Shown: piece by piece, positions 7,667 to 59,334 of the stretch
How positions within the stretch are numbered: the stretch's first letter is position 1
Layout of the letters: each line of letters opens with the position of its first letter
Source of the DNA: Dudresnaya verticillata
Taxonomy: Eukaryota
Reading direction: 5' to 3'
Length of the DNA stretch: 64,000 bases
NCBI GenBank assembly: GCA_977862235.1
Contig: OZ374560.1
Coordinates: forward strand, 2,666,001 to 2,730,000
Notes under the pieces: generated by a model
What the model was told of the DNA's origin: nothing
The model's database searches: none
What the model saw: the letters and a program-made list of their open reading frames with translations, nothing else
Position numbers and translations under genes: made by a program

Positions 7667-7797
7667 CATCTATCCATTTCCATTCTTCCATCCAGGATCC
7701 AATCCTTCTAACATCTATCCATGATATACATCTATCCAGAGTCTTGACTCTTCTTTCATCTATCCATTTCCACATCTATCCAGAGTCTTGACCCTTC
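7667..7797. repeat. Five CATCTATCCA copies in the A spacer between the pol end and the antisense-gene end
   Basis: Copies at 7667, 7712, 7729, 7757 and 7773; two extend to ACATCTATCCAGAGTCTTGAC. Confidence 0.85.
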
Positions 7798-12424: not shown

Positions 12425-12595
12425 GGGACGCGCTAAGATCTTCTTGGGAAGAGAAGTGACAGATTCACTAACAACCGGTCGATTCGTTGATGAGAAGCTG
12501 TCGAAGCTATAGCTCGAGGAGCTGGATTCAACGCACCGATCGGGGTTCCGGTGTCACCTGGGATATGTGGTGTACCGAAACCGGTTCCCCCCTCG

Positions 12596-15256: not shown

Positions 15257-15707
15257 CTTCTGAACAAGATTGTTATCGACAACCTTAAAACGTAGGATTC
15301 GGTCCTGTGGTTGCGCTAATCGGGGAACTTCTCCCTAGGATGGCAAACTTCTCAGAACCGTAGTTCTCGGGGTTACGGGCGATTCTGTCCGCGTGGAACG
15401 CCCAACGCGCGCGCCCGCACAGCCCGTATACTGACGTATTTTTGATGACAGGGATTACGATAACCTGCACGAAGAGTTCCTTGTACACGATTAAAAACCG
15501 CAGAAGCGGTGGCAGTTGCTTGCCTCGAATTTGACGCAACTTCGAAGCTTGATATGAAGCTGAGAAACCGTCGACACTTGGCCGACTAGGATTTCACCCT
15601 CAGGAAGTAGTTCCTTGAATTCTTGCACGGGGAATTCTCGTCCCGTGGGAAGGTCCGAACGACGACTTGCGGATGAGGTAGTGAAAAGGGGCCGACCCTG
15701 AAAACGC

Positions 15708-15725
15708 TTCTAGGTCGGGAGACCA
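15708..15725 (-). promoter_or_regulatory. Primer-binding site of A (TGGTCTCCCGACCTAGAA, tRNA-Tyr-like)
   Basis: 1 nt from the 5' LTR end; identical in C, D and F. Confidence 0.9.
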
Positions 15726-15726
15726 C

Positions 15727-16371
15727 TGTAGTAGTATGGCCCGTCAAGGCAGAAACCCGCCAACCGGCAAGGACAGCTGTCCTGACGGTGCACAACACAC
15801 TAGCTTAGGTAGCTCGGGAAAAGGGGTTGGTAGAGTCTTTGAAAGGCACAGAGCCTAAGGGAAAAGGGGGAAAAGGGGCGGCGCCACCCAGCTCGCACAG
15901 AGCAACCGTCGTGTGGAGGCAAGGCTCGTAAAGCACCTGAAAGGGAGGTTACGGTGAGTCCGTGAATTCCAAAAAAAGGGTAAAGACCCGAAACCCACCG
16001 TGGGTTCTATTCAGGAGGCCCCTGCTACTCAGGGGCCTATTAAGTATACAGAGCCGAAAATGCTCCTACCTCCTATGAGCTATTCTAAGCGATTCTAACT
16101 GTCATTATTAATCTAATTGTACTGTTGTCAGTTATAAATACGGATGAGTTGTAGTACCGCGTCGGGACGCGTGAGCGGCCACAATAAATTACCCAATGGC
16201 AATTTGCCATCAGTTTTGGTGCCAGCAGGGACGCCAGCGAGGCGCATCGCCCTTACAGCGCACGGTGCTTGTGCGCGCCTTACAGCTTGATGCGCGTGGG
16301 CGTCTTACACCTTGATGCGCATAAATGACTTACAGTGCGCCAGCACTCCTGCTGCGGCTCATTCTTCTACA
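15727..16371 (-). repeat. A 5' LTR
   Basis: Repeat of 4254-4898, next to the PBS, followed by TSD GCAAC. Confidence 0.97.
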
Positions 16372-17157: not shown

Positions 17158-17648
17158 CGGCCCCCCTCGTAAGACCGAGAGCCCCGCGAGGTCTGAACCG
17201 TCTCTGTGCCACAGTTTCCAATTTGCATTGGCGTTCTGCCAGATTTGTCGGGCCAAAGCCGTTGCAGCGTAACGTTGCGACTGGGACGCCGTCGACGAGA
17301 AGTCCCGCACTCCGAGCCAGCGCTCCAAATAGTGAGCGTATATCAGGGTCTTCACCCGCGGCGTCGCAAGGTGTTTTGCGCCGGTACCCACCCCAACTCG
17401 CGCTCTCATCGCGGCCTCGTCGTCCCCTTTCCTCGAGCACGGGCAGTCCCTTCCTTCCACACTTCCTCAGCGGGTGAGCCTTTTCGGCAATCTCCGAGTG
17501 TCAACGCCGCGCGCGCGTCCTCCTTGCCAACTTGCATCCCCCACGCCGTAGGGATCGCCACCGCGAGTCGACGGTCGCACGACGCTGTCATCCTCGCGCC
17601 TAACGCACATCATCCTCCCCGACCGACCGTCTGGACAAGGCAGCGCCT

Positions 17649-20080
17649 TTGCAGTTTGCAGAAGAAGACCTCCGGGCCAGGCCCGTTGCAGGAGAACTAC
17701 AGAAGGTCGGCGAGAGTCGCTCACGCCTTGGCACCATGCCCGTGAATCCGCACTTCCAGTACGGACAGCCAGGGTCTTCCGACAATGTGGCGCCGGTCGC
17801 CGTGGTGGCGGGAGGCGTTCCCGCGGACGTAGCGGCCAGACGCGACTGGCAGGTGCGCACAGACCTGAACCATGTGCGGCCTATGGCAGGGGCCAATCGG
17901 GATGAGATACGCCGCTTGGGCGGGAAGAGGGCAGAAGCCAAGGCTTGGAACACGTTGATACGTACGCGGGTGAGTCAGCTCTCGATGACGACGTTGCGTA
18001 TCTCGACCCCGGGACTATTCCCCTTCGACTTAGCGCGCGCTCGTTGGCGCTGGGAAGTGCCGTGGGTGGAGAGCATGTCGAGCTTCATGAGCGATCGGAA
18101 GTACGTCCTGGACGAAATTGCGTTATCCGACAAGTATGACCTGCGGGCTGTAGGGCATAAGCGCCCCTTCATTCGCGCGGGTCGGGACAACTTCCCCTAC
18201 AACACCATGCGGATCACACTTCCGAATAACCGAACGACGTACAAGTACCATCTGGATACGCCGCAGACGGCTCTCCCGCACGAAGCGGCCCGCTTTGAGC
18301 GTCGCCAGCGGCATCGGACCGGCTGTTTGGTTCCGTGCCATTGCCAAGAGGTTACGGCTCTTAAGCCTGAGATGTTCACGAGTAAGTATCCTCAGATACC
18401 ACCGGACTACGAATACTACGAGTATCGTATTCGATGCTGGTGGGAGTGCCCACCATCGTCGCCTACCTAGGCTTGGAGTTGGTGCAGTCGTCCAACACGA
18501 GCCTGTTGTGACTCCTCTACCGGCACGAACGGATCGTACTGATAACCCAAGTCTTCATGTACGAGGAGCGGAAAGGCCGCCTATTCTTCATCAACCAGAA
18601 GATACGTGATGATATTCGCGAGATCGGCTCGTCGGAGTTTACGGCCAATGCCGATGATGCCGTTGACTTCGACTCGCTCCTTCTCTTTGTTGAGCGTATC
18701 GTCTGGCGAAGAGCGTCGAAGCAAAATCGGTTCTTGCCCGCAGATACGGGCACTATCACACCGGTGTTTGACTGTGGGGTTTGGGTAGACTTCGACCCTG
18801 AGGCCTGGGTGCCGGATATTCCCGAAGACTTACTCAAGGGTGTCCCAGTGGACCCGGCTTCCTTGGAAGCCGATGAAGGCATGCACCTGCGATCCGGCTT
18901 TACCGCGGGATGGGTGTGCAACAACTGGCAAGAGCCGAAGACGCCTGCGGAGGTGCCCGCGTACGATGCCTTGACCGATGGTCAACCTCTGGGCCCCTAC
19001 GCCCCTCCGGTTTTTCACGGCCGTAGCAAGGCGGACGCCGCGATTCGTGAAGTGTTCCGCCAGCGCGGTTTGGCTGTGAGGCTCCACAACCACTGGAATA
19101 TCCAGAATCTGACGGTGCACTCCCTCGCGGATTGGGTAGAAGCAGCCATGGTTGACTACGAAGCCTCGTGGCTTACGGTTCCGGGGCCCATCCATCGTAT
19201 GTCGGAACATTTCCGAGGCTTGCCCCGTTTGGGCGAGTCCGCTAAGGTGGAGCGAGACGCGCCTGTCGCGCGAGAAGAGTTGGCCAACACTGCGACCAGT
19301 TCGGCTCCAGTGGCATCTACAGCCATCGTTACCGCCCCCGCGGCCACTGCGTCGGAAGCTCCTGCCGGAGATACTCGACCCAGAGGCCGTCATGGCATCG
19401 GTTCAGCTGGGCGTTGAGCCCGTCAGGAGGAGGAGATAGCGCAAGGCTTGGCCATTCAAGGAGTCACGATACCTGGCACTCCGGGGAGTGCCCCACTTGC
19501 CGAGAGACGCGATGATCGCGAGGGCGACGCGGCAATGGCGTCTCTTCCTCCTATTTCGGAAGCTACCCTTGGGGCCTTTCCGTCTCAAGAGCCAAAAACA
19601 ACGGCAGCAGCAACGGCACCGGCCAGCGGGGGAGATGAGGATCGGATTGAGCCGGTCGCTCCTGCTGCGACGACTGCTCCAGCGTCCACTTCGGCCCCTG
19701 GGGCAGCGATGATGTCTTCCCTGCCGCCGGGTGAGGCGCCGACGTCACTACCTATTGAAGGCAATGCGATGTCCGGGCCTGGCCCGATCGAGGCTGATTC
19801 AGTGCAACTCGTCTCTAGGACGGCAGCAGTAGTCAGCGCCAGGGTGTCGCCCGATGAGGAGTCGAAAGTCATGCCGGAAGAAGGCGGGGGCCTGGTTAAG
19901 ACCGAGCTCGTCATTAAGGAAGAGCTCGAAGAGGAGCCAACTCCTATGGGAACGGGCCCTGCTCAGCCGCGAGTGCGTCGCATCATCCGCGAAGTGCGGT
20001 GTATCGTTCACCCGGTTGGTGCCGTGCGTCCAGCTAATGTGTACAACGACGAGGTAGTTGACCTGACGGAGGATGAGTAG
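17649..20080 (+). pseudogene. C antisense accessory gene (about 780 aa if repaired; frameshifts near 18452 and 19400, one internal stop)
   Basis: ORFs 17649-18470, 18557-19417 and 19448-20080. The bridging frame IVAYLGLELVQ..LYRHERIVLITQVFMYE matches A (LGLEMM..FRHEWIVLVTQVFVYE). AATAAA at 20173-20178. Confidence 0.85.
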
Positions 20081-27966: not shown

Positions 27967-28113
27967 CCTTCCGATGGTATGGGACTAATAACCCGTCCCA
28001 AAAATAGGTAGTAATTCCGGAATGACCGGTGGGTCGATGGGACTTTTTCCCGATGCGCCAACCGGCGTTCCGTAACTGTTTCTCGCACGAGACGATGTGT
28101 CGAAGGGGAATCC

Positions 28114-29022
28114 TGTAGTGCAAACGTCGATGACGGACACCGCCGAGCAGTTCAGGGCTCGGTGGGTAGCGACGCCTGCGGCGATGAGTGGCCTCGCCGT
28201 GGGCGTCTGTTGGTAGAGCGGTTGACTCGCCTGGGGCGGACTGTAAACGCCCGAGGCGGAAAAGAAGAACAAAAGAAAACAGAAAGGGAACACGTCGAGG
28301 ACGGGTAGAGACGTGGAAGCACGGAGGTAGACGCTTAGCCGTAGGCAGCGGTAGGGTACGCGCGTGCTGAACGGGGAAGTCTGGACCAAGGCCGGCTTGC
28401 CGGGGTTTACTGTGACGTCTGAGACGGATCCACTAAGTACAGGATTTCCTAGCGGCGGCGACGCGGATGTACGCGTAACGCGGGAACTCGGGACACGTGT
28501 TGTCCCGAGGCGCGTCTGACAGATCCGTCCGTCATGCAGCCGCGCTCCTGACAGATCACGCGTAGCTTCCCCGCTCGAGTCCTTACACTTACACGTGGAT
28601 TACTTCCTTACAGCCGCATGCGCCCCATGGCGCGAGCGATCTCGATCCGCACCAATCCCGATCCAGTCCGGATTCGGGCCAGCGATGCGGATGCGCCAGG
28701 CTTACAGGCGCGTGCCTTACACTCCTTAATCCCGATGTGGGATCCCGATGTGGGATCCCGATTGGATCCGGATTCGGGCCACGCTTACAGCGAACGTTCC
28801 CGCCACTGCGCCATGCGCGTACGCGTGGCGCCGTACAGTGGCCGGGCTCAGGCGTGCGGTCTGTACGCCCAGCAAGCCGTTCTGGCCCAAGTGGGCAGCG
28901 GCATGCGTCGGTGACGTGTTTGCGCCGCGGGCGGGTTGAGCGCGCCGTTGGCGGTCGTCCGTCGGTAGACGCTGCATATCAACGCTTGAAAGCGAAAACG
29001 GGGGACCCCCCCTGGCACTACA
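28114..29022 (-). repeat. D 3' LTR
   Basis: Repeat of 40416-41320; about 6 substitutions and one small indel region by eye. Confidence 0.97.
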
Positions 29023-29485
29023 CGACCCCCTCCGAAAACGCGACCACGTCAACCTGCTTCAGCCTGCCTGCTTATCCGCATCTGCGTCTCTTCCAGTGCC
29101 GATCTTGTCGGTCACCCGCGTCTTCACGTCTGCGTTTGCCCGCCCTTGGCGTTGGTTGAGCCCCGCCAAAGACGCACGTTCAGTTGCCCATCCGCCGTTG
29201 GCGCAGCAACAACTCCCTTCGAAGACGTGTCGTTGACTAACTTCGCCAGTGGCGTGCGTGAAACCCCGTCGTTTACGTCTTATCTTGTGCAAGCGTGCGT
29301 GCGCTTATCGCCTAGGGCGTTTCTTTGAGTTCCGCATTCGGCGTTGTTCGGTCTAGCGTCGTTGACGTGTGCCTTGTTTTCTTCCGCCTTTGGCGTAGTT
29401 GACTCGACTTCGGAGTCCGAGACCGTCGTTGACGTATCGTGTGAAGTCCGCCAGTGGCGTGTGATTACGCAACGTCTCAGACGTA

Positions 29486-30703
29486 ATGGCGCAGTTCAAT
29501 GGCCTGCAAGTGGCTGCGCCTTCGGCGGCGCCGGTGTATCCGTCCCCCTTCGACTTTTTCTGGAGGACGCCCCGCAACGATGCGCGATTGTTCTCGCGGG
29601 CCCCCTGGTTCGACCAGGAGGCCCTGCGACACGAGGATCTCATCACCCATTACGCTGTGAGCGGATTTTTGCCAGGGGAGTTGCCCCTGGCCGTCGTGTG
29701 GACGAACGAGTGGCGCCATCGGTGCGCCATTCCGAGGGGTTGGCTGCGTATTGCCGCCGGCCAGACGCGTGCAGATGCACATGCGCGTTTCGTCGTTGAC
29801 GTGTATCGGCGGTTTACCCGCTATCCGGGGTCGGTATTGACGCCTACCGTCTTTGAATTTGACGCAGGGCAGTACCGCACAAATAGCGAGTTTGGGTATG
29901 GGGACCGTCTTGGGACGTTGTCATTAAGCCATGTGGCTGTTTCGGCTGAGCCGCGGGTGCTTCAGGAGATTAACCTCCTTGGTGTACGCTTGAAAGCGGA
30001 TTTCCGATACTTGCATAGGACGGGCACCTTCTATTGGGAGCGCTGCGTCCGTTGGGATTGCGAAACGCGCCGCCGCAAAGGCGTTTTTGTGCCGTATCAA
30101 GATACGCAAGTCGATCGCATTGAGCGGGAAAAGTTGCCGCATTGCTTCATTCGCGTCCCGCCGATGTGGCGGGACTTTGAGGTCTGCGAGGGCTTTGCGG
30201 CTGAATTGCCTCCGTGTGTCACGTATATTTGCTCCGAGTTGCGGACGGATCCGTACTCCCGATGTTGGATCGTATTTTTCACCGAGTGGGTCGTCAACGT
30301 AACTTACGCATGGATGTGGGAGGTGTATGACACCTTCCGGCTCTATTATGTGCCGCCACGCGTAGTCAGCCTCCTTGGTGGGCTTGATTTGACCGAAGTG
30401 TTGGGTGGTGCCAGGAACTGCCAAGAGTTCTGGGATTTACGCCAGGTGGCAGATAACGTCAACTGGGACGACCCGGCAGCTGTGCCGCCGGGAAACCGGC
30501 GCCGTAAGGCAAACCATCCGCGTTACGCGATGAGTAGAAATTATTCCGCCTGTGGCGATTGGGTGTGGTGCAACCCGTGGACCAAACGTCTTACGACGGA
30601 GAACATCGCTGAGAGTCATCGTCGTACGGACCGCTTCACGCCAGCGAATCACCAACGTGGGTTGCGCAAGAATTGCGACTTTTCGGGGGATTTCCCGCCT
30701 TGA
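29486..30703 (+). CDS. D antisense accessory protein, aromatic-rich globular part (405 aa)
   Basis: Long ATG ORF not overlapping pol. FFTEWVVNVTYAWMWEVYDTFRLYYV..NW..GDWV aligns by eye with A FRHEWIVLVTQVFVYEARRGFLYFI..RW..GDWV. Confidence 0.8.
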   Translation: MAQFNGLQVAAPSAAPVYPSPFDFFWRTPRNDARLFSRAPWFDQEALRHEDLITHYAVSGFLPGELPLAVVWTNEWRHRCAIPRGWLRIAAGQTRADAHARFVVDVYRRFTRYPGSVLTPTVFEFDAGQYRTNSEFGYGDRLGTLSLSHVAVSAEPRVLQEINLLGVRLKADFRYLHRTGTFYWERCVRWDCETRRRKGVFVPYQDTQVDRIEREKLPHCFIRVPPMWRDFEVCEGFAAELPPCVTYICSELRTDPYSRCWIVFFTEWVVNVTYAWMWEVYDTFRLYYVPPRVVSLLGGLDLTEVLGGARNCQEFWDLRQVADNVNWDDPAAVPPGNRRRKANHPRYAMSRNYSACGDWVWCNPWTKRLTTENIAESHRRTDRFTPANHQRGLRKNCDFSGDFPP

Positions 30704-31779
30704 TGGCGGAGGAGGATGCGTTTCACGCTAAAAGCGGACCGGTTAACCCGTCTGGGACGGACGTCATTACGCCTATGGCGGTTGAGCTTACTGCGGGGGC
30801 GACAGCTCCCGCGACGATTTCGCCAGCGGCGGTAGGACCGTCGGCTGTTGTGCCTGTTGGCTTGCCGTCGGTTGCGCCACTGGATCTCTCGGCGCCCGTC
30901 AATGACGGTGATGGTGATGCCATCATGGCTGCGCCCATGGCGAGTTCTGCGCCGGTAGTTACGCCTCAAGGCGGAGTGTCTAACGTCGCTGACGGTGCGC
31001 ATCGCCCTCCTGCAGTGCCCGAGTGGACTGAGGAGCAGCGCCGCACGGTGCTCGCATTCTTGCGAGCCACCGGTGTCGTCACTGACGGGTCGGGCGGGTC
31101 ATCCACGACGCCCCTCGGGCACTCGCTGCTGGCTGCTCTGCAGCCCAGCGTTGCTGCGGTTCCGGCGTCGACCGTCGTTGCGACTGTGCCGTCTAACGAC
31201 GAAGGTGCGGCGTCTAATGACGGAGTGGCGAAAAAGCCTTTGTCGCCTAAGGCGGGTTGTGCGGGTTCGTCCGCCATTGCGTCCACTGACGTTGCTAGAA
31301 AAAGTCCGCCAAAGGCGAGTGCGGTGGTAGCGCCTACGGCGGTTCCGCAGGCTCCAGTGGCCTCTTCGTCGGTGACGGATGTTGATCGTTCAACGCCCTT
31401 GGCGGTTAATGCGGTCCCGTCACCGGAGGTGCCGGGGCCGTCAACTTCGCCCAAGGCGGTTGAGGATGCTCCGCCGCCGAAGGCGAGTGAGCTTCCTTTT
31501 GTAACGCCTAAGGCGGGTTGTGACTATAACGTTGCGCCTATGGCGGTTGACGAACAGTCGTCGCCTAAGGCGGATTGTGAGACAGGTGCGTCGCCAGCGG
31601 CGGATGTCGCGACTTCGACAGCAGTGATTGTGGCGGGTCCCTTGCGGTCCGCTCCTGCCCCTGCCGCGAGCGCACCGTCGGTGACGGAAGACGACCTCTA
31701 CGAAGAGGCGTTGAGAGAATCCGCCAATGGCGTTGGGGATGATGCCCCACTTGAACCGTCTGCGACGAAAAAGGCGTAG
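30673..31779 (+). CDS. D antisense Ala/Pro-rich ORF (368 aa), probably the frameshifted C-terminal tail of the previous ORF
   Basis: Overlaps the previous ORF end in the -1 frame; low-complexity tail as in A and C; AATAAA at 31978-31983. Confidence 0.65.
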   Translation: MRLFGGFPALMAEEDAFHAKSGPVNPSGTDVITPMAVELTAGATAPATISPAAVGPSAVVPVGLPSVAPLDLSAPVNDGDGDAIMAAPMASSAPVVTPQGGVSNVADGAHRPPAVPEWTEEQRRTVLAFLRATGVVTDGSGGSSTTPLGHSLLAALQPSVAAVPASTVVATVPSNDEGAASNDGVAKKPLSPKAGCAGSSAIASTDVARKSPPKASAVVAPTAVPQAPVASSSVTDVDRSTPLAVNAVPSPEVPGPSTSPKAVEDAPPPKASELPFVTPKAGCDYNVAPMAVDEQSSPKADCETGASPAADVATSTAVIVAGPLRSAPAPAASAPSVTEDDLYEEALRESANGVGDDAPLEPSATKKA

Positions 31780-32997
31780 CCTTTATGGGATCTTTGAGGA
31801 CGGTTAGCAAACGCGAGAGCGCGTGTGGTGTCGCTTTGCCTGTCCCGTGTTGGGGCGGCGAGCGAGGGGTTCATACGTCATAGACGGTTAGTGCCGCGGC
31901 AGACGCGCGCGTCTCACGACGTAGGTCGTGGTGGAAGGTCATGCGGGCACGGGGGTTACCCTCGCTTATGAAGCCCGAATAAACTTGACCGTTGTTAAAA
32001 CGTAGTTGCTTATGTGTCCGCTTGATGTAGAGCGCTGCGATAGCGAATAGTATGTAGCCGACGGGTCGCGTTCGTATAGACGTTTTTGTTGTCTGTTCGC
32101 GGTAGTAGCGTTTTCGTAAAAGCTTGGGGCGGTGCCGCCTTGGTGGCGTTTTTCTCCTTCTTGATGCCGCTACAGTAGCGTAAGCCCTTTTGGGAGGGTC
32201 CATTTTCTCATGCCGACCTAGTCGTTTTGTTCAAATTGTGATTCCGCTTGTTGAGCGAATATGTAGTTGGGGAGCCGTTTGTCGGTAGTCTTTTCGTCTT
32301 TGACGTAGGGCATGTTGGGTTAGCGTCGGGGACGGTTAGCTTGGCGATGCGCCGCGCATGGGGCGCGTTTCTTGCGACTCCTGGGCGTGGCTGCCGTGCG
32401 CAGCGGCGGAGTCATTTTTGCGATTAGCGCGTCGTGCACGAAACGTAGCCCAACTCCGTCTTCGACGACTGTTTCTTCTCTCGTGTTTGCGGGCGACCCC
32501 TTCTTCGACTTGAGACACGTCGTTGACGTTCGCGAGCGTCACCCTCGAGGCGGTTGCGTGCGCCGCCCGTAAGGGTGACGAGTTTCGGACTTGGCCGTGG
32601 GTGGCGCGCTTGGGCGAGGACGTCGGAGACGGTTTGTCGCGTCCGTGCTTGGTTGCCTCGTGGGCGCTCGTAGTGCTGGGGTACACATTTGTCAGGTTCC
32701 CGTTGTTGGGCGCCCGCCGCCGCTGGTGCCCGCGTTATTATTTTCGCATTAAAATTTTCCATTTCGCTGTTGCCCGATTTCGTGTGGTTCGTGCGCTCTC
32801 CACGCCTTCTGACTACTGTCAGCCGTTCTGTCCTTACGGACCCCCTCCGAAGAGGGTTGCCTATTCGCGTCTCGCCAACCCAATCGTCCTTGCTCCGGTT
32901 GATTACAGCCCCAGTCGTCCGTAACGAGTGCACGTCCGCGTCAATCCGTATGAGGATGTGGCGTGTGTTTCGCTTCCAGCGCCCACCCTGACTAGGG

Positions 32998-35900
32998 TTA
33001 TCCGCGTTGCGCGTCGTCGATATTTGCCGGCAGGCTCGTGTGCTTCTGACGGTGATACCGCACAACGTGCGATCGCGGTAGACTGGACACGGGTTCCCAG
33101 GTATTCGCTGAAGCGGGGTATCCAAACCACTTGACGCGGTAGAGGATCTCACCGTCTTCCGCGTGTGCGTGCGACTCAACCCGTTCGATAACGTACTCCT
33201 TCTCGCTTGCAGCGGTCGACGTGGGTTCCTGCCGTTCTAACGCCTTGGGCGGCTCACTTCGTTGTGTGATGGGCGTCTGCACCGGTTCGGCAAACCGTAC
33301 TCAACGAGTCGATCGCCTGAGGCGCTGGGTCGGTGCCCCGAGCGCTTGCGTAGCGGTTTGTGGTTCGTCGCTTTTGCGTACTGGTTCCTCGCTTCTAGCG
33401 GCGTCTTTCGCGTTAGCGCGGTCTTCCTCATCGTCAGTCGATGCGCTCGAAGCGGGACCTACCTTGGTAGCCGGCGAAGCCGAGGTTGCGTGTCCCATTC
33501 GCGTACGGATGCCGGGACCCTCCTCCTCGTCGGAGACGGATTGCAAGACACCGTCGTCGGGGTTAGCGGCAAAGGGCGAGAGCTCTGCTAATCCGCGGCT
33601 TCGTGGCGTTGCATTCATTCGCTCCTGCGAGTCGTTCGTGCTGCGCGGTGTCCCTGTGCCTCCTGCCGGGTCCGCCTGTGGCGTGTCTGGGGTTCCTGCT
33701 CCTTCGTCGGCTGACGTGGGGGCCGGGGGTCCCGGTACGTCAGATGGTCCCGGTGGTTGCACTGTTGCGGGGGCGGTGTGCCCTGGTGGGGTTGGCGCCC
33801 ATACCACGCGGTCTCGGGATAAGCGTTCGCGTTCGCTACGTCCCTTGTCGACGGTGACTGTCCCGTCGTCGACGTGTGTTACTCGATACGGTCCATCCGC
33901 TACAGGTGCGAGCTTGTGCTTGCGCTCTGAGCGATCGGTGCTCCCGCCGCGGGCGAAGTATTCCTTCCGCACGAATGCGAAGTCTCCCACAGCGATGTTC
34001 TCCTTCGATTTCCTCAGACGAGTATCGAAGTTCCGTTTGTAACGCGCCTGCGTTTTCGCGAGCGACGCGTTAGCGGTTCCCATCAATGCGGACAGCCAGG
34101 TTCGCCATTTGGTGTAGTACTGTCCGGCAGTGGGCACGCTTTCCAGCGACGGCTCTGCTTCCAGCGACAATGGCCGCGGGGGCTTAGATAGCACCAGCTC
34201 GATTGGAGCGAGGTTGGTGGACGAGTGCAGTTGCGTATTGTACGCGAACATCAGAGCATCGGTGAACAAATCCCAGTCCTTGGGGTGGTCTGCTACGTAG
34301 TGACGCAGGGAGGCGAGGATGGTTCGATTGAATCGTTCCACTTGGCCGTTACACTGCGGGTGGTACGTAGTAGTGAAGAGATTCTCCACCCCTAAGATGC
34401 GGCAGACATCCTGGAACAACTTGGCTACAAATTTCGGCCCATTGTCGGACAGCAGGTTCTTGGGTGGGCCATACACAAGCACCCAGTGTCGAACAAACGC
34501 CTGAGCGATTTCCAATGCCGTAATCTTACGCAAGGGAACCGTCCGGACCAGCTTCGAGAAGCGGTCCACGATGACGAGTAGAAACTTATTCCCCCGCTTA
34601 GTGCGTATGAGCTCTCCGAGTATATCGATGGACGCAAACTCGAGAGGCTCGGTTTCTGGGAACAGTTTCATCTCCTTCACGTTCTTTCGCATCAGTACCC
34701 GGTTCTTCGCGCAAGTAACGCAGTTGCGGACGGTCGCGTAACAATCCACCGACATAGACGGCCAATAATACTCACGTCGAAGCGTATGGTATAGCTTCCG
34801 TCCTCCAGGATGTCCTGCTAATTTAGCATGATATCGGAGATGGAGCAATCGAACGGGTAACGCGGATGGTACAACGACTTGGGGTCGGGCCTCGACGGTC
34901 CGAACCAATAGTCCTTGTTCGTCCGTTGCAAACGGTAGGTTGTCCCCGTCATCTAGACGTTTCCGGATCTCGTAACAGTAATGGTCACTGCCCTGAGCAT
35001 GCACCAACTCTTCATGCGTCAATTGACGGAGGAGCACTTCATCCGCCGGCGGCGCGTTGGTAACCAACATCTGGTCAAACTCCTCGAAGTCTCGTTCGGA
35101 GAAATCGACTTCGCCTTTGGCGTTTGACGTATCGCTTTCTGCGTGAGCGTAGCCGTCTTCTGACGAGTGATCCTCGTCTTTGACGCAGCTTCCGTGGTAA
35201 CACGGGATATCATCGTCGATCGGTTCGACCGTTTCGCCGTTCGTCTGTAGACGTGAGAGGGCATCTGCCTGAGTATTCAGGTATCCCTTCTTATACTTCA
35301 CGACGAAGTCGAACTCGGAGAGGCGAAGGCGCCATCTCATTAGCCGTCCCGAGGGATCGCTGATTTCCAAGAGCCACCTCAACGACGAATGGTCCGTATG
35401 GACTACGAAGGACTCCATATGAAGGTACGGTCTCATCGTCGTGATCGACGAGACTACTGCTAGGCATTCCTTATCGGATACCGAGTAGTTGCGCTCCCGA
35501 GCGGTTAACGAGCGTGACCAGAATCCAAGCGGCTTCCGTTCGCCGTCAGGCTGCGTTTGGAAGAGTGCGCAGCCAACTTGGTATTCGCTCGCATCACAAT
35601 CGACGGAGTACGGCAGTCCTTGCTGTGGCAACGCCAGGATGGGCGGGTGAGTCACCGCTTCGACAAGCGTGCTGAATGCCCGAGCTTGCTCCTCGGTGAA
35701 CGGTTGTAACCGGAAGTCTTGCTCCTTCCTCAACAATTTGTTGAGGGGAGCGGCGACGTGCGCGTATCGCGATACAAACCGTCTATAGACGTTGCAAAAT
35801 CCGAGAAAGCTCCGTAATTCCTTCTGGTCCCGCGGATGCTTGGCTTCGCGTAACGCGGCTGTGACCGTACGGTCTACTTCCAATCGTCCCGGACGTATCA

Positions 35901-37736
35901 CATGGCCTAAATAGTTGACGGTCGGGGTGAAGAAGTCGCACTTGGTCAACTTCAATGTCACCCCGGCCCGATGCAAGGTCGAAAGGATCTCGTCAACATG
36001 ACGGAAGTGACTGTCAATATCGTTCGAGAAGATGATCACATCGTCAAGGTAGAGGAGGCATGAGCGCCACTTGTATCCCGCAAGCAGTATATCGAGGGTC
36101 CGTTGAAACGTGGCCGGTGCGTTAGTGAGTCCGAAGGGCATACGCTTGTAGCGGAACAATCCGGCATGGCACGTGAATGCGGTCTTGTCGGGATCTCGCG
36201 GATTGATGGGCACCTGCCAGTAGCCACTATTGCAGTATAGGGTGGTGAAGACGTTCGCTTCCCCTAGGCTGTCAATACATTCGTCGATTCGCGGGAGAGG
36301 GTACGTATCTCGTACCGTTACCGCGTTCAAGCGACGGTAGTCAACGCAGAAGCGGAGTGTACCGCCCTTCTTGGGAGCGAAGACGACCGGCGACGCCCAT
36401 GGCGATTGTGCGGGTTCGATAACCCCCTGACGCAACATGCGATCCACCTCCGCTTGAGCGAGTTGCCTTTGCTTTGGGCCAGCGCGGTAAGCCGGGGATG
36501 AAATCGGCCTGGAGCCGGGGGGCAAGTCAATATAGTGCTCCGTGGGTGCGATTTATCCTAACGAACCGTCCCACATCGACGAGTACCTGCGCAGCATCTC
36601 CTTCAGCCGTCCTTGATGTTCGGCTGAGAGATGACTCAGGTCCAACTCGTCCACTGACGGAGGTTTCGCTACAGTTGCTTCGATCGACTTAGCGAATGTA
36701 TCCGGCTGTGCCGTTACTCCATCATTCGTTTGAAAACGGAAATCTTGATTCGCCTCTTCCTCCGCTGCCTGTTCCGCGGTGATACCTAGGACATCGGCCA
36801 GACTTATGTGACTGGGGAACACTGCTGTGGGATGTGGCAACGCGGTAGCGACGACTTGTCCTTTGACGAGCGCTTGCGGACGCGGGGAGAAGTTTGCGAC
36901 GAGAATCCGGAACACTCTCAGCGGCTCTAATTGAGCGACCCCGTTAGTAACGGCCAAAGCTTGGCGATCATATAACGTTCCAAACAGTTGGATGGTAATG
37001 ACCCCTGCTCGCTCGGTCGTTACCGAGATCCACTTTTGTGCCTGTGGCGGGATGATTGTTCGTTCTGCAACGCGTATCTTGGGCGACGTTCGTCCGCCGG
37101 CCGTACCCTACTCTTGTTCCGTTGGCAACGGGGGGTACGACGGGGGCCGGCGCAGCGGGCGGCGCGTTATAGGGACACGGGTCCCGTCGTCCAACTCAAT
37201 CTCGCGACTCCGCGGATAAATCGCTTCGACAAAGCGGTCGCAAAAGTCGCAACCGAGTATAACCGGCGCAGCGAGCCGTTCACAGACGATCAACTCCAAC
37301 TTGACAACCCTTCGTCCGAGACGTACGACTAAATCGATAGTGCCCCGGGTCTGAATCGCCTTGTTGTTAGCGTCTGATATGACGGGGAGACTCTTGGATA
37401 CGATCCGTGATCGCGCTTCTAGCGAAATATCGTCAATACGGATGAAATTCGGACCAGCCCCCGTGTCGAGGACAGTGAGTTTACGTGCCAAGGTACCTAC
37501 AGTTACGCCTAGATCGGCGTATACTTTGTAGTTTCTTTTGACCATTACGAACAACTGTCCCAGGGCTTGTGGGGGCTGGTACCTACGCCAGGGGCGCTTC
37601 AAGGACGTCTGTGACGAGTCTACCCGCCCATCGGCGTATTTGTTAACTAGGTTCGGGCCCTCCTTCCGTGTCAGCACCCGAGGCGGAAGCCTCTCTGCTT
37701 GGTGCGACACCCCAGTGTCAGGAGTTGGTACCCTCA
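32998..37736 (-). pseudogene. pol: D pol: PR-RT-RNaseH-integrase-chromodomain (a few frameshifts/stops)
   Basis: LDTGAGPN in ORF 37108-38304; 1074-aa ORF 33301-36525 with YLDD, DAS, HHCC and DDE core; chromodomain EYVIERV..YRVKWFGY..NTWEP (32998-33282). Confidence 0.95.
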
Positions 37737-40288
37737 TTAGTTTTTCGCCTGCGGCGGTTGTAGCGGCGCTGTGTAGCGATTGACCACCGTCGGATGACGT
37801 TCTGCTGCATGCGGCATAGGTCCGCCTCGTGGTGATGGGGGTCGCGCTGCACGGCGTGCTGCTTCGCGCGCCGCGCGTTCTTTGTACCGAGTGTACGCAT
37901 CGGCGGGGACCCCCGCCTTCTCGGCGTCTGTTAAGCCTTCGTAGTTGGCGATCGCTTTCATATACTCGCTCATGCGGAGGAAGCAGTCCGGTGCCATGTG
38001 ACCACGGGCATAACACTGATGACAGATCAACTGTCTGCGAGCGTCTTGACGGAGCGGACCCCTGTCTTGCCAACCTGGCCTCGCCCGATGGACGTGGGGG
38101 GCATACTCCAAGTACGGGACGCGGGCACGACGGAACGCCCAAAGGCGAGTGTAGGATCCATTGCCTCTGTGTCCTCGTCTTCGACGTAGCTGTCCGTTGG
38201 TAACGCTGACGTTGGCACTGATGCTTGTTCATCGGCCAAATAGAGATCGCCATCGGCGTGTGTTTCCATATCGTCCGCATGACGGGTGACATCACGGAAC
38301 TCAACGGAGGTCTCCGCTATCATAGCGCGCGCGGCAGGCTTCGTGCCCCTCGTCTGTTGACGTAGAACCGTTCGGTTGTCGCCAATGGCGGGGCGCAATG
38401 CGCGAGCGGCTTGGGCCGGGGCCAATATATCCCGTCTTACTGACGTCGAGCCGGCCCTGCCGTGTCTTGCGCGTTGCGCGTCACCTTCGTCCTGTGCGAA
38501 GTGGACTAAACGTTCAAAAGATAACTCCGCCCTCGGCGTTTCTTCGCGGAAGCGGGCCACTAAGGACCTGATCGTCGGGTCTAACCCATCGATGTACAGT
38601 GTCATCCTTTCCCATCCGGGATAAACGTTACCGCAACGAATACATGCGCCGGCGAGTCTCATGCCGTAAGTCGTTTCGTCTTCGCCCTGCTTCTGGCTAG
38701 TCGACCGCAGGGCGAGGACAGCGTCTCGAATCGCCGAAGGAGTGGCGTATGTGCGGAGTAGGTAGTGCACCGCCTCCGGGTAAGATGATACGCCGCCGCG
38801 ATGGCGAGAGGATGTCGATTTGACGGAGCGGAATTGCGTGGCTGCCGTGGCCTTTAAGAAGTACGGCAGCGCGACGAACGCTTGTGCTTCACTCATCTCT
38901 AGCGTGTCCGCTTCATCCGCGAACCGCGTTAAGAATTCGAGGACCATGACGGGGTCGCTGCCGTTGAAGGCGGCGTCCTTCATCGTTAACTCGAGTCGCT
39001 TGATATGGTCTTTGACCTTCCCGGTTTCGCGTCCAGAGCGCTTCTGTCCCACGTCTTGGAGACGGTATGTGCGGTACGATAGAAACTGGTCGAAGAGAGG
39101 ATTGGAGGGGCTTAGCTCCTTCAGTCCCTTGTATCGCTTTCCGCGGGGTCGCATTGCACTGCCGTGAGCCACGTTGCCGTCATCGTCTGACGACGAAGAG
39201 TCTGTTGACCCGCCGTCACTAGACGTGTCTGAAGAGGATGAGGATGAGTCCCCTCGTCGGCGACGGTTCTTCTTCCGTCCATGACGCGACTTGCGGCGAT
39301 TCTTGCCCCGTCTTCTGCGATCTTTGCGTCTTCGACGGTCTTCCTCGGAACTATCGTCATCCGACGGCGGCCCTTGGCGCCATTTGGCGGTTTCCAGTCG
39401 CTCTAAGCGGGTTGCCAATCGTTGAAAACGTTCGCGTGAATTCAGTTCCGACTGGGAATGGACCGTCAATGCCGTTGGCTGCTGAGCATCTACCCCTTGG
39501 TTGGGGTTCGTCATCAGACGGTCGAGGTCGGAACGGAGTCCTTGAAGGGCACCGTCCCGATCTTCTTCCAACGTCTGTAGACGGCTGAAGATACCTCCGA
39601 CATTGTCGTCGAGCATCTCCGCGAATCGAGCGAGTAAGTTACCGTCTTCGGCGACGCATACTTCCCGAATCCGCTCGCGAGGTATCGTGAGATTCCCAAC
39701 GCGGGCGGATGCTGGGGACGCCACTGGCGGTGTGCGCGCGGAGGTCGACGCCTGCGGCGGACCTCCCGTGCTGCGCGGTTGCGCTAACGGCCTGGCCGGT
39801 GAACATCCGGCACTGCCGTGGGGTGGGGGGCAGCAGCCCCTTGGGATTGGTGATTCGTCTACGACGTCGCGCCCCGCAGGGCGTTCTTGGTCGTCGTCGA
39901 CGGGTAAGGTTGGTTGGTGGACCGGAACTTCCGGTTGTTCCTCGACGATGTCGGCTTGGGCTCCGTCCTCGACGGGTCGCTGTTCGGCTTGTACCGTGTC
40001 AGCGGAATCCACGTGCGAGTGGTAGGTTCGGAGGGCCGATTCGTTGGGAACGGTGGTGCGGATGACGACGGGTATCGGCGGGGGAGGTATTTCTCCCCTG
40101 TTGAGCGATATATGGGAGTGGTCGTGGCCTGGACCGGTCGGGAAGGCCGATGCGATCTCGGGGCTCACGAGGCGCCCAGACCTCGTTGTCATCCGCTGTA
40201 GCGACCGCTCCGACGCGGGGACACTCCCCGGCGTCGATGACGGTCTTCTTGAACTGGGGCCTCGCGACGGCGGCGGTCGTGAGGCCAT
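37737..40288 (-). pseudogene. gag: D gag (one frameshift near 38110)
   Basis: 753-aa ORF plus 37737-38111 with zinc knuckle CHQCYARGHMAPDC, ending AKN*. Confidence 0.9.
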
Positions 40289-40395
40289 AATGCAGTCGTA
40301 GAGTTGCTTGAACGTCGTGGACGATTAGCGACGGATGTCTAGAGACGGAAGGTCGGACGTCGCACGACGGAGTAACTCGTTGAAACGTAGCACAC

Positions 40396-40413
40396 TTCTA
40401 GGTCGGGAGACCA
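40396..40413 (-). promoter_or_regulatory. Primer-binding site of D
   Basis: TGGTCTCCCGACCTAGAA, 2 nt from the 5' LTR. Confidence 0.9.
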
Positions 40414-40415
40414 GT

Positions 40416-41320
40416 TGTAGTGCAAACGTCGATGACGGACACCGCCGAGCAGTTCGGGGCTCCGTGGGTAGCGACGCCTGCGGCGATGAGTGGCCTCGCC
40501 GTGGGCGTCTGTTGGTAGAGCGGTTGACTCGCCTGGGGCGGACTGTAAACGCCCGAGGCGGAAAAGAAGAACAAAAGAAAACAGAAAGGGAACACGTCGA
40601 GGACGGGTAGAGACGTGAAAGCACGGAGGTAGACGCTTAGCCGTAGGCAGCGGTAGGGTACGCGCGTGCTGAACGGGGAAGTCTGGACCAAGGCCGGCTT
40701 GCCGGGGTTTACTGTGACGTCTGAGACGGATCCACTAAGTACAGGATTTCCTAGCGGCGGCGACGCGGATGTACGCGTAACGCGGGAACTCGGGACACGT
40801 GTTGTCCCGAGGCGCGTCTGACAGATCCGTCCGTCATGCAGCCGCGCTCCTGACAGATCACGCGTAGCTTCCCCGCTCGAGTCCTTACACTTACACGTGG
40901 ATTACTTCCTTGCAGCCGCATGCGCCCCATGGCGCGAGCGATCTCGATCCGCACCAATCCCGATCCAGTCCGGATTCGGGCCAGCGATGCGGATGCGCCA
41001 GGCTTACAGGCGCGTGCCTTACACTCCTTAATCCCGATGTGGGATCCCGATGTGGGATCCCGATTGGATCCGGATTCGGGCCACGCTTACAGCGAACGTT
41101 CCCGCCACTGCGCCATGCGCGTACGCGTGGCGCCGTACAGTGGCCGGGCTCAGGCGTGCGGTCTGCACGCCCAGCAAGCCGTTCTGGCCCAAGTGGGCAG
41201 CGGCATGCGTCGGTGACGTGTTTGCGCCGCGGGCGGGTTGAGCGCGCCGTTGGCGGTCGTCCGTCGGTAGACGCTGCATATCAACGTTTGAAAGCGAAAA
41301 CGGGCCCCCCTGGCACTACA
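40416..41320 (-). repeat. D 5' LTR
   Basis: Repeat of 28114-29022, followed by TSD AATCC. Confidence 0.97.
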
Positions 41321-41748
41321 AATCCTTTCCAGCTTGAACACGGTGCTCGTACGTAAGCCTTGGTAGACTTCAGGGCTACCAGCGATTTCTCCAAGAGGAC
41401 TCTCCAACTTGTGCGCTGGCACGGCCTGTACAAAAGGACGGTGTTTTACCAGGATGCACCGACAACCTGTCGAAGCAGTCTTGAGGGGGGCGTCAGTCAC
41501 GCCCTCAACGGCCACTTCTAAATGGCCACTAGGGCCGGTTGTAATTCCAAGAATAAACGTGCTCGCCACTGATTTGACGCTACTCAGCAGCTTGAGATGG
41601 AGCGTAGAAACCGTCAACAATCCTGACTAGGGTTTCAACACCGGTTGGCCGGGAAACTCGTCCTTGACACGAAACAACGTCTTGCGTCCTGTACTCGTGA
41701 GTTAACCAACCAGGGTTGAGGAAGAAAGGGGAAACCAACCCAGAACAC

Positions 41749-49602: not shown

Positions 49603-50366
49603 TGTAGTATGTCTAGAGCACCACCGCGTACGGCAGCCCAACGAGACCCCAAGAAGACCACAAAGACCTGTCGGATTTGACCAAAACTGGCCAGAACGTA
49701 GAACGGACCTGCGCGCCGGTAGCAAGCGTGGTAGAGCGGGAGCGCGCAGACGAAGTCGTGACCAGTATCCGTGATGAGGACGGAAAATGGCCAAGTCGGG
49801 GGTTCAGTTGCTAACTTTACTCCCAACCTCTGGCGGGACGGCTTCGTACCTTTTTCGGCTTAGCCGTAGTGTGTGGCCAGCTAAGTAGGCCCAAAATTGG
49901 CCATCAGAGCTAATCTAGAGCTATTCTACAGTTAGTGGCCGAGGTTACTCCGGTCGGCCATAATATCTACTTGTGTTCCGGCGTCGGGCCAATGTTGTAC
50001 CCTTACCAGACTAAACCAAGTATTTGTTCGTTAGTGGTTGGCCAAATGAGTTAGATTTTCCCTTGATTTTTCCACTGTCTTCCCTTTGATTCACCTTGCG
50101 GCCAAATCCAATTTCCATTTGTGTCCTGGCCGAGAACCGGATCATACGTGTACAGCGGGCCACGTGGTGCGCTTCAGTGTCGTAGGTGGCCACGTGTGAG
50201 CCACGTGTACAGTCGGTGGCCACGTATCATACTTGCGCGCGCTCACCGCCGTCCGCGCGCCGACGGCGCAACTTCATTGGCCAAGTGTCTTCGTTTGGTT
50301 GGGCCGATCGTACAGTTGGCCCGTCGATTTGCTTCCTTTCGGCGGCCCCCTTGCCGTTGCACCACA
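49603..50366 (-). repeat. F 3' LTR
   Basis: Repeat of 62152-62915. Confidence 0.97.
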
Positions 50367-50608
50367 GAGCCCCCTTCGCAAGCGCGGACTCCTGGCCGCG
50401 AGGGTTTCATCTGGCCATATCAGCGCGCGTGATCCGCGCCGCTACCCCTCTCCCTACATCCGGCCATCACCATCTTGCTCACGCTTCACTTCCCCTTACC
50501 AACACTTCCCAACACATCGTGCGCACGCCCGCGCTTCTTGCCAACTTGTGCGCCCTTCCCTCGCTTCGGCCTCCACGTGCGCATCCGGCCAGTCGCTCTT
50601 GATGGCGG

Positions 50609-53600
50609 GTGGCCAAAGCGCGCCCGCGTCGCACAGCATCGGCTAAGAAGAAGACTGTTCGGCCGACCATTTCTTCCAGCTCGTCATCTACACCGCCGTC
50701 GAGCGACGAGGAAGTGGCTGTGGCCAGAGCGAAAGCGACCACGAAGAAGACTGGCCAGACGTCAAGGCCGCGCGCGATGAAGGCGCCTTGGGCATCTTCC
50801 GCCCCAGCACCCAAGACCCCAAGTGGCAAGCCCTTCGATCCGCTAGTTGCTGTAGCCACTACCACAGCGGCGAAGCCCATCAAGACTGGCCAGAAGAAGA
50901 GTGTTGCTGCCTCCGCTACTCCGGTCATGGCGCAAGCGATGCCCGACGTTGGCACCGACAAGATAATGCAGGAGATAGCGGCCATGCAGAAGAGGCGCGA
51001 AGCTGAGGAGCAACAATTGGCCAGTCTGAAGAAGAAACTTGCGGATGCGCAGAAGGCCAAGGTGGTGCGCAGTGTGACCATCGTCGCATCATCTTCATCA
51101 GAGGAGGCAGCGGCGGCAACAGGCCAACTTAAAAGAGGTAAGCCGACAGCGTCTTCTAACGTCGGTCCGCTAGCCAAGGAGACGAAGCAAACTGGCCAAA
51201 AGACAGCAGAAGCGCCTGAGAAAGGGTTGGTACAGGCCGAAGTGAAGCGTCTCGAGGCGAAGAAGTCAATGCCGGCCCCAAACACTTCGGTGCCAACGGC
51301 CATTAATCCGACGCCACCGCCGCTGGCCAGCGCTGTTGAGAAGGCTGTTATTGCCATCTCTCGTCCCCTGGTGGCTCAAGCTACCACTGCAGCAGCTGAA
51401 GAAGTAGCTGCGGCTCAACCCGAGGTTGCCGATTCGGCCATGGTATTCGTGCCCGCTCGAGAAGAACCACTGACCAGCAAGCAGGAGTTACCTGAAAAAG
51501 TTGAGAAGGTTGGGCCAGAGCAGAAGAAAGGAGACAAGTTGGGGCAGAAGGCTGCAGAAGCTTTGGCCAATATTCCTGTGCCACGCAAGTCGTCGCGTTC
51601 GGCCACTCCGAGCGCTTCAAGGAAATCCACGCCGCGACTACGTTCGGTGCCTTCGCCTTTCATGCCGACGGCTGCGAGTCGTGCGCGCGAGCTGGTCAAG
51701 TTAAACATCGGCAAGCCCGCTGTTCAGGGTCCTCCCACAAAGAAGCAGCGGCTGCCGCCTAAGGAAGTTGACCAGACACCTCGCGACTAAGTTATCGACG
51801 TCGATGCTTCTACACCAATCCCACCGGCCAATCTTATGTCAGACGGCGATCGTCGTCGCTTTGTGGCCTTGCTCCCCGACGCCGATGAGCTTAAAACTGG
51901 CCATTCTTCGTCTACGCCTTCTGTAGGCGTGCAGCCCAAGTCATCTGGCCAGGTTGAAGATCCTCGCGCTATGGAAGTTACTCCGCGTGAAGAGACCTTA
52001 GATATTACCAAGACTGGCCAGAGTTCAAGTGCTGGCCCCTCTGCTCCTACTCATCCGGATCAGGAGCCGGCTTCGCATAATCGTGCTGCCGTGCCTTTCC
52101 GCTGCGACATTCCGCCGGGACTAGAAGATCATGATGGCCCCGAATTAGTTTTGGATGAGCGATTGCCTGGGACTTCCATCTGGCCAACGCGTCCTCGAGT
52201 GGATATTCCTTATGCCGAGTTGGTGGCCAATAGTGACAAGCTGGACATGATCCGCGTGCGAGAAAGCAATTGCCCTCTCAACGAGGCGTGGCATCAATAT
52301 CGCAAATCGCATGACAATGGCCATCTCTACTGGATCCCTTCGAAGATTGAGTGCGACCGTGCCTTCTTGCTGTGCGCGCAAGTCGTGATGTTCGTCCACG
52401 GGGCTTGGCTGATGTTCAAGGGCAAGTCTAATGTGTACCCTCATACGTCCACATGGTATTACGCCTTCCCTTACGCGTGGATGCTTGAGCGCTGGGAGCA
52501 GACGACCGTGCGAAACGCGAAAATGGCCAGTACAGACCTTCGTCGCATCATAGCGCCGGGAGATTGGCTGGCCCATCGCACGGGTGGTAGCTATGTCTAC
52601 CACGGCAGCACTCGTGGCCAAGAAGGTTTTTGGCCCCCTTTCGAATACTTCCCTAGCGTTCCCGCTTTTCTCTGGAGGGAGTGGCCATCGAAAGGAGAAG
52701 CTAGTCTACTTAGCCCGCTGGCTTATTATTTTGTTGGCCAGTATCGTCGTCGTGCGCTCGACCCCACCTGGGTTGAGTGCTTCCAAGAAACCGCTGTCAT
52801 AGAGTTGCACATAATGGCCAGCATCTTCTTCCGCTATGAAGCACAGGCGTCGAAGAGAATGTGGTGGATGTCTTCTCAGGCCATTGCTCGACGAGTGGAA
52901 GTGGTGAAAGATCTTACCTACCTCCCCGTCAGCCAGGAGCATCAGCATCAGTTCAATCATGTATATTGGCCAGATGTTGTGTCGCTGTATGAGAAGTTGG
53001 CCGACACCGTGCGGCACCGGGACCATTTGTTTCAACGCAGGGCTGGCCATGATGAGAAGTATTGCGGTTTCGACTGGAACAAACAAGTGACCTTTCGGCA
53101 TGGCAGTAGCTTTGGAGTTGAAGTGGCCAACGACGCTTCCATCGTGCGGGCCAGCATCTTGCATCCTCATCCGCATGTGGTGGCCGAACTTTCTGTGCGT
53201 GGCCATGTTAACCAAATGTCTTTCGCCAACGTCTTGCGGCAGCTGGACCAGAGCTTTGGCCGCCTCAGCGATACAAAGCGTGGCCAGACCGATGAACTCA
53301 ACCGCGTTCGTCGTCATGTTGATGAAATGGAAGAGGTAATCAGGCGGGGTGAAGAGCGGTTGGCCAATATTAGAAGGCAGAAGGACCAAGTCGAGGCCGA
53401 ATTGCAGGCCACAAAGGAGACGTTGGCCAGATCTAACGAGCAGGGTCTTGAGTGGAAGAGGCAGCGCGATCGCTGGTGCGATGAGACGCACAATCAACAG
53501 GCCTTACTTGACATGGAGCGCAATCGTGGATTTCATCAGCTGGCCAGTTTGCGCGCAGCTTATGCGCCCTCCGTCTTTGGCCAGATGCCTCAGTTTCCTC

Positions 53601-53980
53601 TGTCTTCCTTGCCTACGCCTGCGCCGGGTATGCCGCAATATCCTGGGGTCTCAGTGGCACCGGCCACAACCCCCACGCCATCTCACGCTGGGGACATCAG
53701 CAGTCATCCACGTGCGCCGTCTCGACCGGCCGATTATCAACCAGAGCCAACTCGTCCGACTTTGTCGGCTCCGCCGACTCCTGTGGCCAATGTTGCTCAG
53801 CCTGGCCAGGTCCCTGGAAGCTTATCTCTGCCGGCCACTTCGCCTTTTGTGACGCCGCCAACCGTCCCTGCGACGGCCCCTCGTGTCCCCGCGACAGCGC
53901 CTCGTGCGCCTTCGCAGTCAAGGAGCAGAGAGCCCTATGCTTCGGGTTCTCCTCGCTCACCAAGTCCTTATGGCCGTTAG
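50609..53980 (+). CDS. F antisense accessory protein (about 1120 aa with one in-frame TAA at 51788-51790)
   Basis: ORFs 50609-51790 and 51836-53980 share a frame and are separated only by one stop (RD*VIDVDAS). Basic Ala/Lys arm, Trp/Tyr-rich core, coiled coil, Pro-rich tail. Confidence 0.8.
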
Positions 53981-59314: not shown

Positions 59315-59334
59315 GACCGAAGATCTCGGCCCGG

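Follow-up and report, generated by a model that had tools for sequence, protein, structure and literature searches.

Element D is a Ty3/gypsy long terminal repeat (LTR) retrotransposon located on the minus strand at 28114-41320 of the window, a 64-kb stretch of the Dudresnaya verticillata genome (contig OZ374560.1, positions 2,666,001 to 2,730,000), where it is nested inside another element, C. It carries 140 sites of the form CG-xy-NNN-y'x'-CG, the two halves of which co-vary. This co-variation points to a mini-hairpin with a 4-bp stem and a 3-nt loop, and not to the independent half-sites of a dimer. Elements A, B and C of the same window carry hairpins of other geometries or anchors. It is tentatively proposed that the sites of D are DNA self marks, which would be bound by an element-encoded protein, most likely the antisense product D1, and would keep the element's own family active.

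In what follows, a+b denotes a stem of a bp with a loop of b nt, and the anchor is the outer dinucleotide of the stem. The site totals of D refer to the whole element (140), to the element with one LTR counted (128) or to the internal region (116).

The pairing rule of element D

A preliminary description of the window claimed about 44 copies of the gapped palindrome CGCC-N3-GGCG in D. The actual count is 48, and all the positions listed there are exact. The spike at a 3-nt spacer is confined to D, with 48 copies against 4 in the other 50.8 kb of the window, and no other spacer from 0 to 12 nt occurs in D more than 6 times (6, 6, 5 and 6 copies for k=4, 5, 6 and 8). When one LTR is counted, 42 copies remain, whereas 500 dinucleotide shuffles give 0.87 on average and never more than 5, and the excess persists against codon shuffles in gag and pol. 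The sites had also been described as dispersed, with differing flanks, and this is correct: Tandem Repeats Finder reports no array of D sites, and only 2 of 128 sites match another site at 21 of 27 context bases. An origin from tandem repeats is rejected on these grounds.

What the preliminary description overlooked is that CGCC-N3-GGCG is one class of the wider set CG-xy-NNN-y'x'-CG. An unbiased gapped-word scan detected a second class, CGTC-N3-GACG, which is nearly as strong, and several weaker ones. The 140 sites comprise CGCC (48), CGTC (40), CGCT (12), CGCG (10), CGGC (7), CGTT (7) and others (16); 56 more CG-anchored sites have a 4-nt spacer. The 16x16 matrix of half-sites is diagonal, with 128 sites on the diagonal and at most 3 in any off-diagonal cell. 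The hybrids CGCC..GACG and CGTC..GGCG occur twice (1.8 expected by chance), while the pure sites number 42 and 36, respectively. A homodimer tolerating either C or T would accept such hybrids, and their absence therefore means that the halves must pair with each other. The internal region contains 116 perfect CG 4+3 stems vs 7.9 in 12 local shuffles. Stems with a G.U pair are at chance on the sense strand (9 vs 8.2) and on the antisense strand (8 vs 10.1), and stems with other mismatches number 42 vs 36.3. The pairing in D is thus strictly Watson-Crick. Deamination of CpG, converting CGCC to CGTC, was considered as a source of the second class and rejected because the one-sided intermediates are at chance.

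The stems have a defined length. The flanking bases pair beyond the CG in 12 of 128 sites, compared to 34.3 expected (none of 20000 permutations was that low), and an outward extension is found in none of the 42 CGCC sites. The sites also keep apart. Among sites with 3- or 4-nt loops, a distance of 11-16 nt between centres is found once vs 17.9 expected and a distance of 17-23 nt 33 times vs 19.2; the corresponding figures in gag-pol alone are 0 vs 8.5 and 21 vs 9.2. Five other elements were tested as well and did not show the spacing rule; their defined sites are fewer. The predicted DNA stem energies are between -1.6 and -4.0 kcal/mol.

The preliminary description had regarded the palindrome as the site of a dimeric DNA-binding protein. 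The sites are indeed non-random and dispersed, and they are likely a protein-recognition mark because the stems are rarely extended and the sites keep apart; the chance frequency of hybrids does not agree with an ordinary dimeric site on double-stranded DNA (dsDNA). That CGCC-N3-GGCG and CGTC-N3-GACG are each bound, as dsDNA, by an ordinary homodimeric protein of their own is a highly improbable explanation. Two such proteins would account for the fixed spacer and for the two classes that make up 88 of the 140 sites. Besides, a spacing of 20-22 nt equals two helical turns, and element F, described below, shows a plain palindromic mark within the same clade. However, a separate protein would be needed for each diagonal class, of which D has at least six, and for the many stems of element B and the relatives, and the avoidance of a paired flank would be unexplained.

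The sites invade coding sequence. Compared with synonymous-codon shuffles, there are 26 sites vs 4.1 in pol, 26 vs 4.1 in gag, 9 vs 1.1 in D1 and 23 vs 4.5 in D2, an open reading frame (ORF) next to D1. They occupy all three reading frames, which together with the excess over codon shuffles rejects an amino-acid or codon artefact. Per kb, D2 has 21 sites, the stretch just upstream of D1 has 19 and the LTR has 13. Pol and the intergenic stretch have about 8 each, so the latter, free of coding constraint, is no denser than pol.

The codes of the other elements

The LTR elements of the window are nested: B (4254-16371, minus strand), flanked by a GCAAC duplication, interrupts A, and D lies inside C (16558-42367, minus strand). 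The code of D, CG 4+3, is represented by 128 sites vs 10.3 expected. Element B, of the same clade, uses AG 4+5 (43 vs 2.9) and AG 5+4 (26 vs 0.7), C uses GG 4+4 (25 vs 4.7), and A uses GG 4+4 (11 vs 1.5) and GA 4+5 (10 vs 1.4). The remark of the preliminary description that each half-site contains a CpG is therefore true for D but not in general: B is AG-anchored, and relatives are anchored by CT or CA. D holds 0 or 1 sites of the B type; B is mildly enriched for sites of the D type (12 vs 4.2) and of the C type (18 vs 4.0). A and D, which form sister rows of the tree described below and share 77% identity of the reverse transcriptase (RT), differ in code. The antisense ORFs of B and C are 50% identical and their zinc knuckles near-identical; their hairpin codes are different.

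Element F (49603-62915, minus strand), which belongs to the same clade, has no excess of hairpins. It contains the linear palindrome TGGCCA in 84 copies vs 8.8 expected, distributed over the LTR, both antisense ORFs, gag and pol. The other elements of the window contain 0-5 copies of this word. No code was found for element E.

The presence of different codes in families of one genome argues for a cause encoded by the elements. It also bears on the possibility that selection favours the hairpins as a defence against the host, for example by shielding CG or other sites from methylation, deamination or small-RNA targeting, and that no protein of the element reads them. This is very unlikely. Such evasion would agree with the CpG richness of D (observed/expected about 1.3) and with the two CpGs in every D site, but not with codes that differ between families of one genome, several of which are not CG-anchored, nor with the lack of excess in F, E, Copia and LINE-like elements.

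Distribution across the clade

A total of 226 loci with a pol alignment were fetched. Distant viral records (L167-L226) and rows with fewer than 300 aligned residues or shorter than 3.5 kb were set aside, and a FastTree tree of 141 rows was calculated, five of which are elements of the window. All five fall into one clade of 41 rows with an SH-like support of 100. Of the 41 clade rows, 24 have at least twice the expected number of 4-bp stems at one or another loop length of 3-6 nt, as does 1 of the 100 rows outside. The median stem excess is 2.3 in the clade and 1.3 outside; several of the clade rows are close kin and hence not independent. The geometry varies with lineage, being 4+4 in L085/L089 and 5+3 in L005/L006/L013. 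As in D, the pol ORFs of L081, L082, L085, L089, L001 and L025 show an excess over codon shuffles.

The genome bin of L081 permits a comparison of element types. Clade members of this bin peak at 2-3.8x, and its 8 Copia, 2 LINE-like and 4 other RT loci have no consistent peak (single values of 1.8-2.0 occur in short loci). Host-wide mutational bias was rejected as the origin of the hairpins since E, F and these Copia, LINE-like and other RT loci lack the excess, the bin being assumed to represent one host. The genome in question (L081-L092 and G001) is filed as a bacterium; it contains many intact gypsy, Copia and LINE-like elements, is likely mis-binned algal DNA and offers a useful supply of intact clade members. 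A long degenerate repeat region of another locus (L004:10940-13246) is rich in GGCG-N3 and CGTG-N5 stems, of which the locus has 34 and 16, respectively, and is possibly a tandem expansion of hairpin units.

The two central bases of the loop are dyad-symmetric in relatives (GC in L081/L082, TA or GC in L085/L089) and form a further family-specific layer of the code.

The antisense protein D1

D1 is an intact antisense accessory ORF of 405 amino acids (29486-30703, plus strand) located between pol and the 3' LTR. A search of 50%-identity representatives yields 416 relatives at E<=0.001, and profile searches place its homologues antisense to and downstream of pol in many members of the clade. 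In the window, ORFs of the D1 family are found in B (4976-6349, plus strand) and, in two pieces, in C (17604-19417, plus strand). The profile-profile probability of a match to D1 is 94% for B and C, 98% for L081/L085 and 94% for the L074 group. The antisense ORF of F at 51791-53980 gives no significant match to D1 (0.9% probability), and a search for its relatives found none.

Neither D1 nor the 26 relatives scanned match a Pfam family at E<=0.01, TRP28 (PF04195) included. The AlphaFold model of D1, built from 148 sequences, is mainly helical with a pLDDT of 93.7 and a pTM of 0.91; a 180-residue core is predicted alike (93.8). The whole structure has no match in the Foldseek PDB or BFVD databases, and VIA-align gives a best Z of 2.3 among 48,161 chains, which is no match. 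The 180-residue core has no match in Foldseek PDB, profile searches against PDB sequences for the D1 fold reach E 0.22-0.48 at best, and a search of the ESM Atlas gave no usable match. The structure searches yielded no methyltransferase, HUH, tyrosine-recombinase or polymerase fold. The predicted fold of D1 thus matches no solved structure searched, which by itself does not prove it to be new. The family has about 15 mostly basic columns, including an arginine-rich helix at 189-197, and D1 has conserved arginines.

Relatives of D1 carry tails of 100-400 residues in frame with the domain. These are disordered and contain a short helix-loop-helix, which D2 matches weakly (E 0.069). D2 (30703-31779, plus strand), a low-complexity ORF rich in Pro, Ala and Ser that follows D1 in another frame, is thus likely to correspond to this C-terminal tail. 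The stop codon of D1 overlaps the start codon of D2 (30701-30705), which is either a break in this copy or a stop-restart coupling. In one relative the helix-loop-helix of the tail resembles HeH/LEM at E 0.12, which may serve as a lead.

The proposed function and its alternatives

The proposal starts from direct observations: the co-variation of the halves, the geometry of the sites, the codes that differ between families, the restriction to one clade and the conserved antisense protein. The sites would form hairpins, most likely of DNA, where the element is locally melted, transcribed or reverse-transcribed, and a protein would read them. The reader would be encoded by the element, since a reader of host origin should drive all families towards a single code, and the candidate for this role is D1. 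In favour of D1 are its intact ORF, its 416 relatives and conserved arginines, the profile matches that connect it with the antisense ORFs of B/C, L081/L085 and the L074 group, and the peak of site density directly upstream of it and in D2. The outcome would be anti-silencing or self-activation of the element's own family, similar to that of the VANC proteins discussed in the last section. This specific reading is tentative. The models in which the hairpins are selected and read by an element-encoded protein are, when taken together, probable. A wider formulation, in which red-algal gypsy elements possess a structure-encoded self-recognition and a fast-diverging antisense protein of new fold reads a family-specific hairpin shape across the whole element, is possible and is put forward with more reserve. 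According to this formulation, the reader would activate, protect or package its own family only, and some lineages would have replaced the hairpins with a linear palindrome (TGGCCA) or given up the mark.

The flanks of relatives are dyad-symmetric, with A enriched on the 5' side (791 vs 598) and T on the 3' side (670 vs 540) in 19 pooled rows, a pattern that the reading of either DNA strand would produce.

A number of observations weigh against the D1 proposal. The subclade of L049/L043/L051 has a D1-family ORF (95.6% probability) and no hairpin excess, and it has no clear substitute word either. Conversely, the L001/L006 group is rich in hairpins, and its antisense ORF matches D1 at just 1.8% probability. 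The D1 family is not basic overall, with a median isoelectric point of 6.8 and a net charge of -1, and judged by its predicted structure it has no known nucleic-acid-binding fold. The gap in the spacing of the D sites is coupled to a scarcity of CG within 7 nt of each site. In D, A is enriched in the flanks (5' 101 vs 57, 3' 93 vs 61) and in the loops (121 vs 89), but on the sense strand only, which better fits a reader of a single strand, possibly RNA; the strand evidence is thus split between D and its relatives. The native flanks hardly differ from random ones in predicted stem probability (0.50 vs 0.47 for DNA, 0.37 vs 0.37 for RNA). Where copies have diverged, two-sided changes are about as frequent as expected or modestly more so, and fewer than half of them restore pairing, so the sites turn over between copies rather than persist by compensation. 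The divergence of stems between copies is lower, for example 0.062 vs 0.085, but is not taken as a sign of selection, since picking intact stems in one copy yields the same result under neutral decay.

The sense-strand A-richness is one of the points that suit a different reader, namely a core protein of the element, be it Gag/nucleocapsid, RT or integrase, that would act on the genomic RNA or on single-stranded cDNA. The selected hairpins would then be dispersed packaging or replication signals by which each family picks its own genome. The middle base of the D loop avoids G on the sense strand (18 G vs 44 C, P=0.005), and the predicted probability of RNA stems is slightly higher on that strand (0.37 vs 0.29, P=0.011). 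A CCHC knuckle is present in all 14 elements checked, family-specific codes in one genome suit any element-encoded reader, and the incomplete match between the presence of D1 and that of hairpins would be accounted for. Nevertheless, D tolerates G.U pairs on neither strand, the flanks and loops of relatives are dyad-symmetric, the knuckles of B and C are near-identical despite the different codes, and the native context is not tuned for folding. A core-protein reader is unlikely, though a real contender.

The turnover of sites also agrees with a functionless by-product. In the course of its own reverse transcription, the element could undergo fold-back or quasi-palindrome correction that perfects near-palindromes with a family-specific bias, a ratchet resembling the repair model proposed for HIP1. 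Such a process would leave perfect pairing without an excess of one-mismatch neighbours, as is found in D, and, being cis-acting, would likewise be family-specific and able to enter coding DNA. On the other hand, correction should lengthen the stems or leave the flank neutral, and extension is instead cut to a third. It gives no reason for the spacing and flank rules, the intergenic stretch, though unconstrained, has no more sites per kb than pol, A and D differ in code at 77% RT identity, and the domain and fold searches with D1 list no methyltransferase. The by-product explanation is considered doubtful, with a lower probability than a core-protein reader.

Organization of element D and its surroundings

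Element D is bounded by a 5-bp target-site duplication, AATCC (28109-28113 and 41321-41325). Its LTRs have TG...CA ends and are 98.9% identical; the left copy (28114-29022) is the 3' LTR and the right copy (40416-41320) the 5' LTR, and each contains 12 sites. The middle of each LTR (28660-28780 in the left copy) has a 13-bp tandem repeat, ATCCCGATGTGGG, in 3.6 copies, and repeated GATCC words. The non-coding stretch upstream of the antisense gene (29023-29485) contains 9 sites. It is followed by D1 and by D2, the latter with the densest cluster of the element. The intergenic stretch between the antisense gene and pol (31780-33300) has 12 sites, or 7.9 per kb. On the minus strand, pol (33301-36552) encodes RT, RNase H and integrase in the order RVT_1, RT_RNaseH, Integrase_H2C2 and rve according to the Pfam scan. 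The protease region (36553-38026, minus strand) is broken by in-frame stops in this copy. The gag ORF occupies 38027-40324 on the minus strand, and the gag CCHC zinc knuckle, near 38024, is in a frame different from that of the main gag ORF. An Rfam search gave no match and a search for tRNA genes found none. The 120 best relatives of the D pol listed include two with the name of Agarophyton chilense and three with that of Chondrus crispus, both red algae; two more are named otherwise, one as a bacterium and one as Solanum. A red-algal host is thus likely.

Farther along the window, F, flanked by a CCGTA duplication, interrupts a distant RT element, the integrase of which resumes near 62735. 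A third copy of the B LTR begins near 63418.

Comparison with known systems

In the full-text literature within reach, which leaves out most subscription papers, those on red-algal genomes included, neither such hairpins nor a D1 ORF are described in red-algal elements. Paired-stem geometry is recognised by IS200/IS605 TnpA, in the REP/RAYT system, in integron attC sites, in the promoters of the phage N4 virion RNA polymerase and in the dispersed packaging signals of single-stranded RNA phages. The readers of these stem-loops are bacterial or viral, with longer stems or few sites. D would resemble these systems, by analogy, in that the geometry of the stem matters and not the sequence alone.

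The closest functional parallel proposed here is found in the VANDAL elements, Mutator-like DNA transposons of Arabidopsis, for which binding and demethylation by VANC proteins have been shown (PMC5735166). The VANC motifs are linear and non-palindromic (YAGTATTAY, AGTTGTCC); they lie in tandem repeats of non-coding sequence, and VANC binds them as dsDNA. Like VANDAL as described there, D has an extra gene and many short family-specific motifs that differ between related families. Unlike VANDAL, D is an LTR retrotransposon, and its sites are defined by pairing and dispersed, with 52 of them in gag and pol. D1, the putative reader, has no Pfam match and shares no domain with VANC. Known self marks of transposons, the VANC motifs, are linear words in non-coding repeats. 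If the proposal is true, a mark defined by geometry, re-coded in each family and shaping the codon choice of pol would be a new mechanism by which selfish elements tell self from non-self. Even if the origin is mutational, the hairpins would represent a trace of reverse transcription that is specific to each family and new to the literature.

The position of D1 has a precedent in plant Ty3/gypsy elements. Retand with its TRP28 ORF, Grande and RIRE2 have a conserved ORF that runs antisense and lies between pol and the 3' LTR; a regulatory role was proposed for it (PMC11963269), and D1 is likewise antisense and in the same place. Unlike in Retand, D1 and its 26 relatives scanned match neither TRP28 (PF04195) nor any other Pfam family. 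Retand has tandem arrays in the region of the antisense ORF; the accessible part of the report does not mention element-wide hairpins (PMC11963269). The role of antisense accessory ORFs in gypsy elements is a long-standing question, for which D1 offers a testable target. With about 400 members and a confident predicted fold that is unmatched, the D1 family may represent a new hairpin reader of re-tunable specificity.

A short palindromic word iterated far above chance is also known from cyanobacteria. HIP1 is one fixed, ungapped palindrome found genome-wide, with a cognate methyltransferase and lineage variants (PMC4390886). D shares with HIP1 the iteration of a short palindromic word, and TGGCCA of F shares the HIP1 form; in contrast to HIP1, the sites of D are gapped by 3 nt, fall into at least six stem classes and are confined to one element.

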